Shown: one piece after another, positions 5,663 through 62,997 of the stretch
Layout: every line of letters begins with the position of its first letter
Position numbering within the stretch: the stretch's first letter is position 1
Sequence record: OR352938.1
Length of the DNA: 64,000 nt
From: Escherichia phage AV108
Strand: one strand, 5' to 3'
Notes under the pieces: model-generated
What the model saw: the letters and a program-made list of their open reading frames with translations, nothing else
Database searches by the model: none
Told to the model about the DNA's origin: nothing
Translations under genes and position numbers: made by a program

Positions 5663-5830
5663 TTATTTGTTAATTTCTGGTGCGTTGCTCGGATAGTAAC
5701 CTTCTTTAACACCAAGATATTTTGCAACCATTCCGGTGATCTTCTGTGCTACTACGATATCGAATTTCAGGTAGTCTTCACCGTGGTTTGCTACAATGTA
5801 CGCTTCGCATTCTGCTTTAGTCTGGAACAT
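5663..5830 (-). CDS. small protein (55 aa), copy 2 of a duplicated gene
   Basis: MFQTKAECEAYIVANHGEDYLKFDIVVAQKITGMVAKYLGVKEGYYPSNAPEINK; about 80 percent nt identity to 2381..2548 including leader; ORF track lists 5663..5896. Confidence 0.5.
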   Translation of the reverse strand: MFQTKAECEAYIVANHGEDYLKFDIVVAQKITGMVAKYLGVKEGYYPSNAPEINK

Positions 5831-17078: not shown

Positions 17079-17753
17079 TCACATATTCCTCATTTTACAG
17101 TTATCAAAGTGCCATCGTAGAGCATTGCCTTTATTGGTAATTTTACCGCAATGCGGACAAGGATCTGCCACTGTTGCTTCCTTTGTCCTTTGTGCAATCA
17201 GCTTTATCATTTCCTCGCTATGTGGTATTCCTTTAGTTGGCGATGGTTTCCCAAACATAGGATTTTTACTTCCCATTCTAGCTTTTGAAATGTTTAACGC
17301 GTGCTCCTTTGTTTTTGGCTTACGCATTTTAGCTTTTGTCTCTTCTGATTTCAACACACCTTTCGAAGATTCGCTAATCTTTCTTCGCGTTTCTTCTTTC
17401 ATCGGCTTGCCCTTTCTTTGTTCAGAGATAAGTACCCTAGCTTGTTCATATACCCTAGACGAAACAATATAATCTCTTTTATTGGTCTTCGCATTTTTTG
17501 CTAAACACATCATACCAAATGCTTGTGCCATAGGTCCACCATGAATTTTTGCTAGCAGATGATGAATCACGAAATGTTCTTTTGCTGTCAAATCAATCAG
17601 GTTATCAACTTCATCACCGCCACCCATAGATCTCGGTAAAATATGATGTGTTTCCTTATATCCTTCAACGGTTCCTCTTATCTTTGCTTTTTCTATGATT
17701 GCGTCATGTAATTTTTGTAAGTTCATGAATAAATCCTCGTTTCTGTATACCAT
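17079..17753 (-). CDS. mobE: HNH homing endonuclease (MobE-like by position)
   Basis: HNH core THHILPRSMGGGDEVDNLIDLTAKEH; C-terminal basic repeats and CPHCG zinc knuckle; inserted between nrdA and nrdB exactly where T4 carries mobE. Confidence 0.6.
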   Translation of the reverse strand: MVYRNEDLFMNLQKLHDAIIEKAKIRGTVEGYKETHHILPRSMGGGDEVDNLIDLTAKEHFVIHHLLAKIHGGPMAQAFGMMCLAKNAKTNKRDYIVSSRVYEQARVLISEQRKGKPMKEETRRKISESSKGVLKSEETKAKMRKPKTKEHALNISKARMGSKNPMFGKPSPTKGIPHSEEMIKLIAQRTKEATVADPCPHCGKITNKGNALRWHFDNCKMRNM

Positions 17754-17823
17754 TATTTATCAGGTATCCAGAAGAAGGATTAATTCACCTCACCATTATC
17801 CTACAACCTCAAAACATTTATCA

Positions 17824-18027
17824 TCAGGAAGAATCGCCCATTCTACAACCGTATTCATCCTCGACGTAGTAGCAAGTCCCATCATGTCGAGCATCATATT
17901 CATCACCAACAACAAAGCTATCAGCTAGCTCAAAATCTACAGCAACACATTTTAATTTGGTCATAATAAAATCCTCACTTGTTTTTGATGGTTGTATTAT
18001 AGCGGGGATTTCTCCCCGCGTCAACAC
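17824..18027 (-). CDS. hypothetical small protein
   Basis: promoter 17996-18024 lies within the listed 5' end, so the likely start is the internal MTKLK. Confidence 0.35.
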   Translation of the reverse strand: MLTRGEIPAIIQPSKTSEDFIMTKLKCVAVDFELADSFVVGDEYDARHDGTCYYVEDEYGCRMGDSS

Positions 18028-34922: not shown

Positions 34923-37844
34923 ATGGCAGATTTAAGCAGAATCCAATTTAAACGCACTAGCACTAAAGGTCGTAAACCGGATGCTAGTACGATGAATCCG
35001 GGGGAATTGGCAATCAACCTTGCGGATCAATATCTTCTTACTAAAAATGATTCCGGTGATATTATCAATTTAAGTTGTCCTCCGGTGTATGACCGCGATG
35101 TTACAATGGCGGGTAAGGTTAAAGGTAATAATTATATCTTAAGTAAAACCGCTAACTATCTGGAAGATCAGACAGCGAGAGATCTTAACTACTTTGGCGC
35201 TTTCCGTACCAATGGTCTTGATGGTCTTCTCGAACTCACGCTAAACGTTCCTCACTCTTACGGCGTCCAACATGGTCGAGGATTTACTTTCCAATATGGG
35301 CACACTGGATCGCGTGTAGAAACTTATGGATACAATAAAGAAGGTCAAAAAGCATTTAGCTATAAAATGTATCACGAAGGTGATAAACCTACTCCCTCAG
35401 AATTGAACGTTTATAGCAAACAAGAAATTGACAGAATGTTTATTAAAAACGTTAAAATGTCTGTTCCTTCCGGTGACGCAACTCGTGGTTACTTTAAGAT
35501 CGCGACCGCAATGATTCCTCAGAATAATGGTCGAATGGCATTTTTACGGATTTACGGCGGAAACGGATATAATGTTAACTCCTACGATCAGGTGGAGTTC
35601 CTTGAAATTGTGATTCGTGGTGGTAATAATAACCCTAAAGGTGTTAGTATTGCTGCATATCGTCGTAATTCTTTGAACGTCCATGAAGTATTTGCAATTA
35701 ATACTTCCGGTGATAACTATGACATTTATGTTAACTATGGTCGTTACACCGATAACGTTATTGTAGAGTTTGGAAAAACTGTTGATGTTGCATTGACTGT
35801 TCACGATGTTCCTGAATTTTCGGCGACTAAACCCGCAACCGGAACTAAATTTGATGCTCGTGTTATTACGATGTTCAACACCGAAAACAAAGCCGGAACG
35901 TTGATGTTTGATAATAACGGTCAAGGAACATATGATATTATCAGCTTGAATAACTCGACTGATATCAATAAAAAATATCTTCGTAAGTTTCGTAGCAAAT
36001 CCACAGAAACAATATGGCATGAGGTTGTCGAGGGTAGCGTATATCGTTTAGCTACTGGCGTTACTGATCAGTCAGACCAACTAAAAATTGATTTTAATGG
36101 GGTTACTGTAAATCGTCTTTTCGTTAAGGGAAATAATGCTATCAGAATGGAGCGTAGAGACGGACAAAGTAATTACCTAGAATTTTATGATTATCGTTCC
36201 GGTGCTAACCGCCGTCAAGGTTATCTAGGGTATGGTGACGGTACTACTAACACCGTACAGTTAGTAAATGAATTAACGGAAGGTAATAACTCATTAAGAC
36301 TGGATGATACTGGTCAGGTTACGTTGTCTGTAGGCAAAACAAAAATTGTATATACCAACGGACAATATTATTCCGCTAACTCTGATGCATATCGTATGAT
36401 CTATGGCAATTACGGTGCATTCTGGCGCAATGACGGGACTAAAGTTTATCTTCTTTCCACCGAAGAAAATGACCATTTTGGTGGATGGAACGGCAACCGA
36501 CCATTCATTTACGATTTGACGACTGGTAAAGTTACTTTAGGTGGTGACGGTAACGAAGGTGCATTAGTTCTTGAAAGAGATAGCCGTGCTGCTAGATTTG
36601 CTGGCGACATTTACGTTGGCAAAGGGATGTTAACATTTGATGCCGGACGATTAAATTCTCGTGATTACTTCCGGTTTAACCATTGGGGCGATAGCAATAA
36701 CGCTCGTGATAACATCTTACAGCTTGACGATAGCAAAGGCGCACACTTCACCACTGAACGTACTTTAGCAACTGGTGCAATTAAAACTAAATTCTTCGGT
36801 GATTTGGAATCTGCTGGTCAAATTAAATGGGGTAAAGGGACCGCCACATCTACGTTTACTCTACGTGTATGGGGTAACGATAGTCGTAAACAAATATTTG
36901 AATGCGGCGATGAAAGCGGGTGGCATTGGTATACCCAACGAGCGGGGGGTCCTGGTACAAATGATATTATATTCAATGTTAACGGGAAATTTCAATCTCA
37001 GGGTTTTGAGACTTCCGGTAATATTAAGATAACTGGTCCAGACCTTGAGTTTCGTCGCACTGGTAATAAGCATATCTGGTTTAGAGATCCAAACGGCTTA
37101 GAGTTAGGCGTGATGTACTGCGATGATGCTGGTGCTATTCGCTTCCGTGGTCAGAAACAAGCCCAGTCGTGGAAATTTGCAGATAAAATGATCCAGTTGG
37201 AATCTGGTACTGTATCCGGTGGCGGTAATGGCCTGATTCGTGGTGAAGTTGCTGGCGGTAGTTGGGCTAGCTGGCGTGACCGTGCTGCTGGCCTTATGGT
37301 TGGGTGTCCTCAATCAACCAATTCCGCTCATAACATCTGGAAAGCTACTCATTGGGGTAAATATCACATCGCAGCAATGGGTGTACACGTTCCTAGCGGT
37401 ACTATCGGTAATGCTATAGCTCGCCTAAACGTTCATGACGCCAACTTTGACTTTAGCGCCTCCGGTGACATGTCGGCAGGGCGTAACGGTTCGTTTAACG
37501 ATGTGTACATTCGTTCTGATGCTCGCCTGAAAATCAATAAGGAAGAGTATAAAGAGAATGCCACCGATAAAGTTAATCGCTTGACGGTATACACCTATGA
37601 CAAGGTTAAATCTTTAACCGACCGTACTGTCATTGCTCATGAAGTTGGTATTATTGCTCAGGATCTTGAAAAAGAATTGCCGGAAGCCGTAACAACTTCT
37701 AAGATCGGAGATCCAGATAATCCAGAAGAGATCTTAACAATTTCTAACTCTGCTGTCAACGCTCTTTTAATTAAGGCGTTTCAGGAAATGAGCGAAGAAT
37801 TGAAAGCCGTTAAAGCTGAACTAGCGGAACTTAAAAAGAATTAA
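34923..37844 (+). CDS. 37: long tail fiber distal subunit (large), with a C-terminal chaperone-like domain
   Basis: N-terminus MADLSRIQFKRTSTKGRKP matches T4 gp37 as recalled; C-terminal 130 aa carry an SDARLK motif and coiled-coil tail like peptidase S74 intramolecular chaperones. Confidence 0.85.
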   Translation: MADLSRIQFKRTSTKGRKPDASTMNPGELAINLADQYLLTKNDSGDIINLSCPPVYDRDVTMAGKVKGNNYILSKTANYLEDQTARDLNYFGAFRTNGLDGLLELTLNVPHSYGVQHGRGFTFQYGHTGSRVETYGYNKEGQKAFSYKMYHEGDKPTPSELNVYSKQEIDRMFIKNVKMSVPSGDATRGYFKIATAMIPQNNGRMAFLRIYGGNGYNVNSYDQVEFLEIVIRGGNNNPKGVSIAAYRRNSLNVHEVFAINTSGDNYDIYVNYGRYTDNVIVEFGKTVDVALTVHDVPEFSATKPATGTKFDARVITMFNTENKAGTLMFDNNGQGTYDIISLNNSTDINKKYLRKFRSKSTETIWHEVVEGSVYRLATGVTDQSDQLKIDFNGVTVNRLFVKGNNAIRMERRDGQSNYLEFYDYRSGANRRQGYLGYGDGTTNTVQLVNELTEGNNSLRLDDTGQVTLSVGKTKIVYTNGQYYSANSDAYRMIYGNYGAFWRNDGTKVYLLSTEENDHFGGWNGNRPFIYDLTTGKVTLGGDGNEGALVLERDSRAARFAGDIYVGKGMLTFDAGRLNSRDYFRFNHWGDSNNARDNILQLDDSKGAHFTTERTLATGAIKTKFFGDLESAGQIKWGKGTATSTFTLRVWGNDSRKQIFECGDESGWHWYTQRAGGPGTNDIIFNVNGKFQSQGFETSGNIKITGPDLEFRRTGNKHIWFRDPNGLELGVMYCDDAGAIRFRGQKQAQSWKFADKMIQLESGTVSGGGNGLIRGEVAGGSWASWRDRAAGLMVGCPQSTNSAHNIWKATHWGKYHIAAMGVHVPSGTIGNAIARLNVHDANFDFSASGDMSAGRNGSFNDVYIRSDARLKINKEEYKENATDKVNRLTVYTYDKVKSLTDRTVIAHEVGIIAQDLEKELPEAVTTSKIGDPDNPEEILTISNSAVNALLIKAFQEMSEELKAVKAELAELKKN

Positions 37845-49487: not shown

Positions 49488-49703
49488 TTTGATTCTCCTT
49501 TGTTACTAGATAACGAATTTGGTCTTGCATTGCGATCAGTTCCCAGCGTGCTACTTTCATCATAGAAACTGACTCTTTGAACATAATATTAGCTTTTTCC
49601 TTTTCCCCTGTCAAGTAGATTTCTGCAATTTTTCACAAAATTTTTGAGTTTCTTCATTCTTAAACGGTTTCATATAAGTCAACCTTTTGTTTTCGATGGG
49701 GAT

Positions 49704-53293: not shown

Positions 53294-53375
53294 TCAAATA
53301 TAGTCTACACGATACCGTGCACGGGTAACACCCACATATAATAACTGCATTGCCAATTCAAAGTCAACATTATCT
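53294..53375 (-). other. dda: dda C-terminal segment (helicase motif VI) in the -1 frame
   Basis: frame starting at the G of the dda stop reads DNVDFELAMQLLYVGVTRARYRVDYI then stop. Confidence 0.6.
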
Positions 53376-54675
53376 AAGGGGTATACAGGAACACGCGGTC
53401 TACGCTGATTCCTTGTGACTTATGAATAGTGCAAGCTGGTAATGCTTTTACATTCAAGAACATACGCTTCATCGTCCAGAAAGAATCCCAATCCGGTTTA
53501 AAATTCGGATTCTCTTTCTTCATTTCGCGATATTGTCCGGCGACCGTATTCAGATAGATAGAGAAAATGTTCTTCTGACGTTGTTCTGTCAGAATGTTGA
53601 TTTCTACTAAATCTGGTTTATCTGTAGTGATTCCGACTGCATCTAAACCGACTTTCTGATTTAGGATTTCTTTGTCTTCGTCATCATCGACGCTTTCCAC
53701 TTTCAGAGTATAGCCTAAAACTGGTTGCGGATCTACCCCCGTGCAACGTAATGTAAATTCGCGCGGTATAACCTCTTTAACTCGGATCATCTCACCATTG
53801 TTAAAAATAACATTGGGGATCTTCTTCCCGCGTTCATCTCGCAGATATTCGATCAATGGTTCCTGAGTAACCAGAATTTCATCTACAATCACTGGTTCAT
53901 CGGTGTTATAAACGCGCTTACGTACAATTTCATTGAGTTTTTCGACGCTCTTGTTAGTGTAGGCCAGAATACGGTTTTCTAGAAGGTCTTCCGGCGTTTT
54001 AACGGTTTCGAAATAATGCTTCATAAACTCCGGCAGAGTTGAGCTATGGAATACACCCTCGTTACCGCACTGCTTTTCGAATACCCATTTACCATTACGG
54101 ACAGCGGTCGCCACATCAATTATTGGCGCATTAGATCGTTTAATCTCTGTAAGTTCTACATTCTGAAACCTTTCATCGGTGAAGAAAGGAGAGATCGACG
54201 TTGCGCCGCTCGGATCAACTGGTCGTAACTGGTACAGATCACCCACGGCAATAATAACAATTCGACCGTTGATACTCTTCATGAGAATATCAAATAGTTT
54301 CTTATCGACCATACTCGCTTCATCAACAATGATGATCTGAACATCATCTAGCTTAGGAGTATCTTTTTGCTCAAATACTTGAGTATCTTCATAGTTGGTC
54401 GGGTTTAGTCGCAGTAGTGCATGTAAAGTAAATGCTTGACGACCTACCGCTTTACTCAAAACTTTTTTAGCCTGGTGGGTAGGCGTTGCCAAAACCACAC
54501 CAGTTACACCACGGCGGACCATTTCCTGAACAATGAATTTCATCATTGCGGTTTTACCAGTACCCGCCGCACCACGGACAGTTGTATGCTTCTTTTGTTC
54601 AATGCGTTTCATTAGAACATCAAAAGCATGTTTTTGCCCGTCTGTTAACATATCGAAAGTTAATACTCTGCTCAT
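53374..54675 (-). CDS. dda: Dda SF1B DNA helicase, main frame ending before motif VI
   Basis: collinear with T4 Dda as recalled (GAAGTGKT, ATPTHQAKK, IIVDEASM, ELTEIKRSNAPIIDVATAVRNGKW, TIHKSQG); main frame stops after VDRVFLYTP. Confidence 0.85.
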   Translation of the reverse strand: MSRVLTFDMLTDGQKHAFDVLMKRIEQKKHTTVRGAAGTGKTAMMKFIVQEMVRRGVTGVVLATPTHQAKKVLSKAVGRQAFTLHALLRLNPTNYEDTQVFEQKDTPKLDDVQIIIVDEASMVDKKLFDILMKSINGRIVIIAVGDLYQLRPVDPSGATSISPFFTDERFQNVELTEIKRSNAPIIDVATAVRNGKWVFEKQCGNEGVFHSSTLPEFMKHYFETVKTPEDLLENRILAYTNKSVEKLNEIVRKRVYNTDEPVIVDEILVTQEPLIEYLRDERGKKIPNVIFNNGEMIRVKEVIPREFTLRCTGVDPQPVLGYTLKVESVDDDEDKEILNQKVGLDAVGITTDKPDLVEINILTEQRQKNIFSIYLNTVAGQYREMKKENPNFKPDWDSFWTMKRMFLNVKALPACTIHKSQGISVDRVFLYTP

Positions 54676-61557: not shown

Positions 61558-61871
61558 ACATAGCCCCCAACTACACGCATAACAAAGGTCTTGAGTTTAT
61601 ACCAGAAAGTTTCTTTTTTCAACTTTTCTTCTGCTTCTTTGATCTGCGCGGTTAACGCCTTAATGACGTGTGGATATACCACATCACGATCTGACGGCGT
61701 GGAGTAGTCGACCACAATACCTTTAGTGTCTGGATCGTATTCAACATTATGAATATAGACAATATGATGCTCTCCCTCTTCATCAACAATTATCAATTCC
61801 TGAATAACTGTCTTCATTGCTTCTTGAATCAAGCTGTGTGCTTCTTCTAAACTTGTTGGTTTCTTATCCAT
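61554..61871 (-). CDS. hypothetical protein at the gene 40 position
   Basis: 105-aa ORF between uvsX and 41; assignment by position only. Confidence 0.4.
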   Translation of the reverse strand: MDKKPTSLEEAHSLIQEAMKTVIQELIIVDEEGEHHIVYIHNVEYDPDTKGIVVDYSTPSDRDVVYPHVIKALTAQIKEAEEKLKKETFWYKLKTFVMRVVGGYV

Positions 61872-61926
61872 AATATAATCCTCTCTAGATATGAAAAAGG
61901 GGCACGTAGCCCCTTTACTACCATTG

Positions 61927-62997
61927 TTATGCTAACATATCTTCGATTTCTTTGTCAACTGCTTCGTCGCTGATCACTTGCCCCAGCTTATAATGATCGT
62001 TGATTGCTTCGTTAAACTTATCGTTTGTCAGAAGTGGTTTCCAGAACTCAATGCTATTGGTTTCTTTAGCACGGAACTTGCGTTCTTCGGTTTCCATCTC
62101 TCCGGTCTCGGTATTCAGGATTGAACGAGAATACCAGCCGTTTGACGGTTTCACTACCCAGCCTAACTCTACAGCCAACTCCAGCAAACCGGAATAAGGA
62201 TCGATGCCACCGCTAAATGTTACGCTAATCGGGAACTTAGATTTTTCTTTAACGGTTCGTGATTTTTCCGCATTCAGGATAAAATCATAACCAGTAATTT
62301 CGGTTCCTTCTTTCTGCTGACGACGACCAATAATGAAAACTTCATTGGCTGAATACATCGCGCCAGTACCGCCGGACATAACGGTCTTACTAAACATTTC
62401 TTGCGTTTCGTAAGTGTGGTTAATAGCGATGCACGGGATATCATTCATAGTCAGATACGGCGTAACCATACGGAACAAGCCTTTAAGTGCTTTCGCTCGC
62501 GTCATATCCTGTGCGGATTTCTCATTAATCGCGTCTTCAACTTCTTTTTTACTTGCTAAGTTACCGATTGAGTCAATAAAGATGATCACTTTATCTTCAC
62601 GGGTAATTTGCTCAAGCTGGTTCATGATTTCAAATTTAAGTTCTTCGATGTTCTTGATTGGAACATGCACCACGCGATCAGGATCTACACCCATAGATTC
62701 CAGATATGCGGAAGTAATGCCAAACTCAGAATCAAAGAACAAGCACGCCGCATCAGGATTCTGTTTCATGTATGAACTAACACAAGTTAATCCCATGTTT
62801 GATTTAAAGTGCTTAGATGGACCAGCAAAGAAAATCAGACCAGATTGAAAGCCTTTTTTAAGATCACCTGAAAACGCAATATTCAGCATCGGGATCTTAG
62901 TGCGAGTATTTGTTTTTTCGTTAAAGAAGCTGGATTTAGACAGTACCGCAGTAGTTTTCAGGGTAGAGTTCTTTTTCAGTTTTTCCAGTACAGACAT
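61927..62997 (-). CDS. uvsX: UvsX recombinase (RecA-like)
   Basis: collinear with T4 UvsX as recalled (RTKIPMLNIAFSG, GPSKHFKSN, CIAINHTYETQEMFSKTVM, KSRTVKEKSKF). Confidence 0.9.
   Translation of the reverse strand: MSVLEKLKKNSTLKTTAVLSKSSFFNEKTNTRTKIPMLNIAFSGDLKKGFQSGLIFFAGPSKHFKSNMGLTCVSSYMKQNPDAACLFFDSEFGITSAYLESMGVDPDRVVHVPIKNIEELKFEIMNQLEQITREDKVIIFIDSIGNLASKKEVEDAINEKSAQDMTRAKALKGLFRMVTPYLTMNDIPCIAINHTYETQEMFSKTVMSGGTGAMYSANEVFIIGRRQQKEGTEITGYDFILNAEKSRTVKEKSKFPISVTFSGGIDPYSGLLELAVELGWVVKPSNGWYSRSILNTETGEMETEERKFRAKETNSIEFWKPLLTNDKFNEAINDHYKLGQVISDEAVDKEIEDMLA

Follow-up and report, generated by a model that had tools for sequence, protein, structure and literature searches.

We describe here a disrupted dda helicase gene in Escherichia phage AV108 (OR352938). 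The gene lies within the window, the 64,000-nt stretch of this record that was analysed, and when aligned with its relatives its lesion is a 10-nt deletion private to AV108. We consider it likely that the deletion is real, and that the gene is a loss-of-function allele, or young pseudogene, of a dispensable gene. The deletion shifts the dda frame and creates a TAG at the junction, yielding a predicted 433-residue protein that ends after motif V. Such a protein lacks the last 30 of 463 residues, and with them motif VI and the catalytic arginine it contains. By alignment the gene is a dda orthologue by descent, yet it does not encode a complete Dda.

The window and the dda reading frames

The window belongs to a Krischvirus, an RB49-like member of the T4-type phages, with 96–99% identity to its relatives by megablast. 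Several features set it apart from phage KFS-EC. The distal long-tail-fibre protein (34923–37844, plus strand; 973 residues, gp37-like) forms a 90% cluster by itself, and for most of its length it shares just ~45% identity with the KFS-EC protein. Set in a backbone that is otherwise 97–98% identical, it is by this comparison a highly divergent predicted receptor-binding module. KFS-EC has a homing-endonuclease gene between gene 40 and uvsX that the window lacks at 61871–61930; its only relative in the window is 39% identical and lies near nrdB (17421–17726). For several more of the small ORFs and HNH genes of KFS-EC there is no match in the window, which is typical mobile-gene mosaicism. We also note two paralogous 55-residue ORFs on the minus strand (2384–2548 and 5666–5830), with ~89% protein identity and 3.3 kb apart, in the block of small early genes.

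AV108 dda is on the minus strand, and its neighbourhood is that of annotated relatives, with srd and a small ORF upstream, and small ORFs and dexA downstream. The frame-0 ORF (53374–54675) starts at an ATG at 54675 and stops at a TAG at 53376–53374, just past motif V; it encodes 433 residues and is seen in the ORF list, in the Pfam matches and as an exact match to the deposited protein WPK33447.1; the window's tail-fibre proteins trace to AV108 as well. The product ends in ...TIHKSQGISVDRVFLYTP, followed by the TAG. It contains Walker A (GAAGTGKT) and motif II (VDEASM) of RecA-like domain 1A, and matches Pfam families AAA_30 (103 bits), AAA_19 (90 bits) and PIF1, together with the Dda SH3-like 2B domain (PF18343, SH3_14) at residues 259–411 (56.6 bits, cut-off 25). 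The last helicase motif in frame is motif V, TIHKSQG (53410–53430, minus strand), which aligns to TFHKAQG of T4 Dda.

Motif VI, YVGVTRAR with its conserved arginine (53315–53338, minus strand), aligns to YVGVTRGR of T4 Dda and is not in the same frame as motifs I–V, being situated in the -1 frame beyond the TAG. This frame runs without a stop from 53419 as far as a TGA at 53296–53294 and reads ...PVYP then LDNVDFELAMQLLYVGVTRARYRVDYI up to the stop, with motif VI inside; its full reading is ...PVYPLDNVDFELAMQLLYVGVTRARYRVDYI. The part stranded by the lesion (53294–53377, minus strand) is a leucine followed by DNVDFELAMQLLYVGVTRARYRVDYI and the TGA, recognised by translation, by tblastn and by a weak match of the 32-residue piece to the end of UvrD_C_2. 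Its Asp codon, GAT, has the G of the TAG (53374) as its first base. A tblastn search with the intact Dda of a relative returns a second HSP, in the shifted frame, covering residues 432–463 (E = 2.8e-11), and the 78 nt past the junction are identical to phage G2494, so the resemblance of the -1 frame to Dda is not due to chance. UvrD_C_2 (PF13538) is absent from the truncated protein and present in the intact G2494 orthologue (residues 414–458, 34.6 bits), whereas AAA_30, AAA_19, the Dda SH3 domain and PIF1 are common to both.

Residues 5–463 of the G2494 orthologue are colinear with T4 Dda (PDB 3UPU, E = 1.6e-124), an SF1B 5'-3' DNA helicase. AV108 shares motifs I–V and the SH3 2B domain with T4 Dda and with the Krischvirus orthologues (e.g. 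RB49 NP_891582, 463 residues), but differs from all of them in that its frame stops past motif V, leaving motif VI and the C-terminal 30 residues out of frame. The original prediction of a dda frame that stops right after motif V, with the C-terminus and motif VI encoded in the -1 frame from the G of the stop codon, is thus borne out, as is its assignment of motifs V and VI, both motifs being colinear with T4 Dda in the alignment.

The stranded C-terminus brings with it neither a usable start codon nor a Shine-Dalgarno sequence, and its separate expression can be set aside. There is no ATG, GTG or TTG in the -1 frame between the TAA at 53422–53420 and the junction. The first candidate starts, a TTG at 53356 and an ATG at 53350, lack a Shine-Dalgarno sequence and would give a peptide of only ~20 residues.

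The 10-nt deletion and its consequence

Alignment with G2494, kvi, RB49, JSE and FL37, in each of which dda is a single 1392-nt ORF encoding 463 residues, places the lesion precisely. Ten nucleotides of the coding strand, GCATGTGTAC, which in the relatives sit between CCCCTT and AGATAA, are gone between positions 53375 and 53376 (minus strand), with the net effect of a -1 frame. The premature TAG is made by the junction itself (T|AG), and at this position the relatives read YTP-CMCT-DNVDFELAMQ. To explain the split frame, the original prediction offered three options: loss of a single base, a pseudogene or programmed -1 frameshifting. The category of frameshift mutation or pseudogene stands, but the size of the lesion does not, with 10 nt rather than one missing relative to the five aligned phages.

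A broader comparison gives the same picture. An 81-nt query with the junction at its centre matches a span of 91 nt in all 58 Krischvirus records, and therefore all of them carry the 10 nt. Dda is in one frame in each of these 58 genomes of the phage collection, so the comparison with related phages that had been proposed at the outset finds dda intact throughout and the lesion private to AV108. All 14 other sequences listed for the Dda 90% cluster (40 of 177 members) are 463 residues long. The exact AV108 junction has no match in IMG/VR, JGI metagenomes or GTDB genomes. AV108 dda thus has both features of a frameshift allele: the orthologues of close relatives are intact, and the length of its indel is not a multiple of three.

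How the 10 nt were lost is less readily explained. There is no microhomology at the ends of the deletion, and a simple slippage mechanism does not explain it. Replication slippage at a nearby imperfect repeat, noted by eye (TGTATAC/TGTGTAC), predicts a loss of 15 nt, not 10. We also note that on the opposite strand the deleted 10-mer directly adjoins AAGGGG, which offers possible NGG PAMs and would fit nuclease-induced repair; we regard this adjacency as a coincidence.

The consequence for the protein can be judged from another SF1B helicase. The motif VI arginine of BsPif1 makes contact with the gamma-phosphate of ATP, as do the arginine fingers in RecD2 and PcrA, and it was shown by mutagenesis to be needed for ATP hydrolysis and unwinding (PMC4824106). 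Given this role, the 433-residue product should be catalytically dead, and we expect it to have neither ATPase nor helicase activity. Dda is an accessory helicase, which would account for the viability of AV108, and the essential replication genes encoding the gp41 helicase, gp61 primase, gp59, gp32, uvsX and the topoisomerase subunits are intact in the window. That dda would be dispensable for phage growth is supported by the T4 literature, in which dda indel escapers form plaques (PMC13275509).

Consensus error and recoding as alternatives

A plausible concern is that dda is intact in the phage, and that the 10 nt were lost during assembly and consensus calling in CLC, or that the stock was mixed and a minority allele was called. 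The deletion is unique relative to 58 relatives, and the truncated protein is found on one NCBI contig only (166,043 bp), the exact-protein contig look-up being otherwise empty, both of which are compatible with an error confined to this record. The general quality of the assembly was assessed by translating every annotated KFS-EC CDS of the syntenic region and searching it against the AV108 window. Every large or essential gene is full length and in a single frame: the topoisomerase subunits, rIIA and rIIB, gp41, gp61, uvsX, gp32, gp59, nrdA and nrdB, td, ligase and tail fibres 34–36. Frame breaks occur in three genes only, dda and two small hypothetical ORFs, and ~100 other genes in the window are intact.

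The two small ORFs are both on the minus strand. One encodes a 64-residue hypothetical protein (49593–49682; homologue of KFS-EC gp164 and kvi_144) and has lost one nucleotide in an A-run near 49628–49640 (A5 vs A6); the extra A is present in 53 of 55 relatives, and the AV108 ORFs at this position are only 23 and 44 residues long. The other, encoding a 55-residue hypothetical protein (17796–18027; homologue of KFS-EC gp121 and kvi_100), has an extra base at 17847/17848 that alters its C-terminus (GGTTGT vs GGTGT), and none of 58 relatives has this base. As two further private 1-nt frame-breaks in small conserved ORFs, these lend some weight to consensus error.

The distribution of private variants points the other way. 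Comparison of the AV108 window with KFS-EC, kvi and vB_Eco_SAP identifies 468 window-private substitutions and 20 small indels, the dda deletion among them. Seventeen of the private indels are not a multiple of three in length, and 13 of these fall in non-coding sequence, which makes up ~17% of the window (binomial p ~1e-7). Frame-changing indels thus avoid coding sequence, whereas random consensus errors would mostly hit it, which indicates purifying selection on real variation. This depletion suggests that the assembly is generally accurate and that the deletion is probably real; together with the ~100 intact genes it also excludes a generally noisy assembly. Moreover, the loss of 10 nt in non-repetitive, non-homopolymer sequence is atypical of sequencing or assembly errors. 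Deep coverage is usual when purified phage is sequenced as Illumina 2x250 reads, and is to be expected here. Purified AV108 was sequenced in this way, with Illumina MiSeq 2x250 (Nextera XT), de novo assembly in CLC Genomics Workbench and annotation with RAST (PMC10844046). On balance we find a consensus or stock artefact unlikely, and the comparative data suggest that the deletion is probably present in the phage DNA and not just in the consensus.

A different proposal accepts the deletion and supposes that translation overcomes it. The mRNA reads UAU ACC CCU UAG AUA in frame 0 at the junction, in agreement with the originally proposed junction of CCC-CUU-AG (A CCC CUU AG), and C_CCU_UAG (53374–53380, minus strand) is a candidate slip site at which peptidyl-tRNA-Pro could re-pair from CCU to CCC while the TAG occupies the A site, and so give functional levels of a 460-residue Dda, whether incidentally or by programming. 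Cognate pairing would be retained after the slip, the -1 frame is open across motif VI to the normal stop, and the product would read YTP-L-DNVDF in place of YTP-CMCT-DNVDF, with a loop one residue shorter than that of T4 Dda. C_CC.U is one of six tetramers whose shifting in E. coli is detectable when a strong pseudoknot is present; it rises well clear of background only next to that of IS3, and without a stimulator its shifting is close to background, at about 0.1% (PMC4066793). The mean for Z_ZZ.N tetramers without a stimulator is similarly near the control level (0.147%, vs 0.112% for controls with no motif; PMC4066793).

The AV108 junction has little to raise it above that level. The hallmarks of a programmed FRAMESHIFTING, a heptamer, a stimulator and a conserved two-frame layout, are all missing at the dda junction. 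There is no X_XXY_YYZ heptamer and no efficient tetramer such as A_AAG, only C_CCU; no GGAGG or other Shine-Dalgarno-like element was seen by eye in the 30 nt upstream of the slip site; and the 96 nt from the slip site fold at -22.7 kcal/mol with z = -1.14, equalled by 30 of 200 shuffled sequences. The two-frame layout is found in none of the 58 relatives, and because it is private to AV108 nothing has evolved to use it. The dnaX site (A_AAA_AAG) and the -1 sites of IS3 and IS911 resemble AV108 in having protein parts in two overlapping frames and in permitting tRNA re-pairing, but AV108 lacks their heptamer, stimulator and conservation, and its expected efficiency is approximately that of background. 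We therefore reject the programmed -1 frameshift put forward in the original prediction, on conservation (all 58 relatives being in a single frame), motif and stimulator, and regard rescue of functional Dda by any form of slippage at the TAG as very improbable. Traces of the 460-residue protein are possible, although there is no reason to think that they amount to more than noise. If recoding did occur, the peptide YTPLDNVDFELAMQ would mark the -1 product. A real, private deletion that inactivates dda remains the reading we favor.

Origin and significance of the allele

The loss of dda has a counterpart in laboratory phages that escape the defence system DRT1. Activation of DRT1 requires Dda, which is necessary but not sufficient, and the tested phages without Dda are insensitive; all five independent T4 escapers of DRT1 carried unique dda indels, with the protein mutated or truncated (PMC13275509, Neville et al. 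2026). These escapers show directly that a T4-type phage survives indels in dda and can even benefit from them, and since dda can be lost in this way a defence-escape origin for the AV108 allele is possible. The two situations are alike in that a small indel alters or truncates Dda and the T4-type phage stays viable, although the T4 escapers were selected experimentally on a defined defence (PMC13275509), whereas AV108 is an environmental isolate whose allele is read from a deposited consensus sequence. Retron-Eco11 was also considered as a precedent for Dda as a trigger and was rejected, the relevant paper being concerned with UvsW and D10, not Dda.

The history of the isolate allows for such an origin. 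AV108 came from pig waste and was enriched overnight with ESBL10, an ESBL strain of E. coli, as host; plaque purification followed on the same strain (PMC10844046). That the phage was recovered only once it had been enriched on a wild strain of E. coli makes defence escape plausible. The allele is also probably recent, as it is private to AV108. One could then propose, as a refinement of the loss-of-function reading, that ESBL10 or a natural host has a Dda-dependent defence such as DRT1, that loss of Dda permits plaquing, and that the truncation is a naturally captured escape allele selected during the enrichment on ESBL10. However, neutral loss of an accessory gene, or mutation during propagation of the stock, fits equally well, and this is a single event without recurrence, so we hold the escape proposal to be doubtful and speculative. 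Were it true, AV108 would exemplify trigger loss in the field, and sensing that depends on Dda would reach beyond T4 to the RB49-like phages.

The finding is mostly a matter of annotation. The depositors' label for the 433-residue stub is "DNA helicase" (WPK33447.1, Escherichia phage AV108), and the helicase goes unmentioned in the AV108 paper (PMC10844046). The annotation of OR352938 wrongly presents dda as a complete DNA helicase. The gene is disrupted and lacks motif VI, it carries no recoding signal, and genome scans should not take its layout for recoding. A modest biological interest comes from the finding that T4 dda indels lead to escape from DRT1. A fresh dda knockout in a natural isolate would provide a cheap test of whether Dda-dependent immunity shapes environmental T4-like biocontrol phages.
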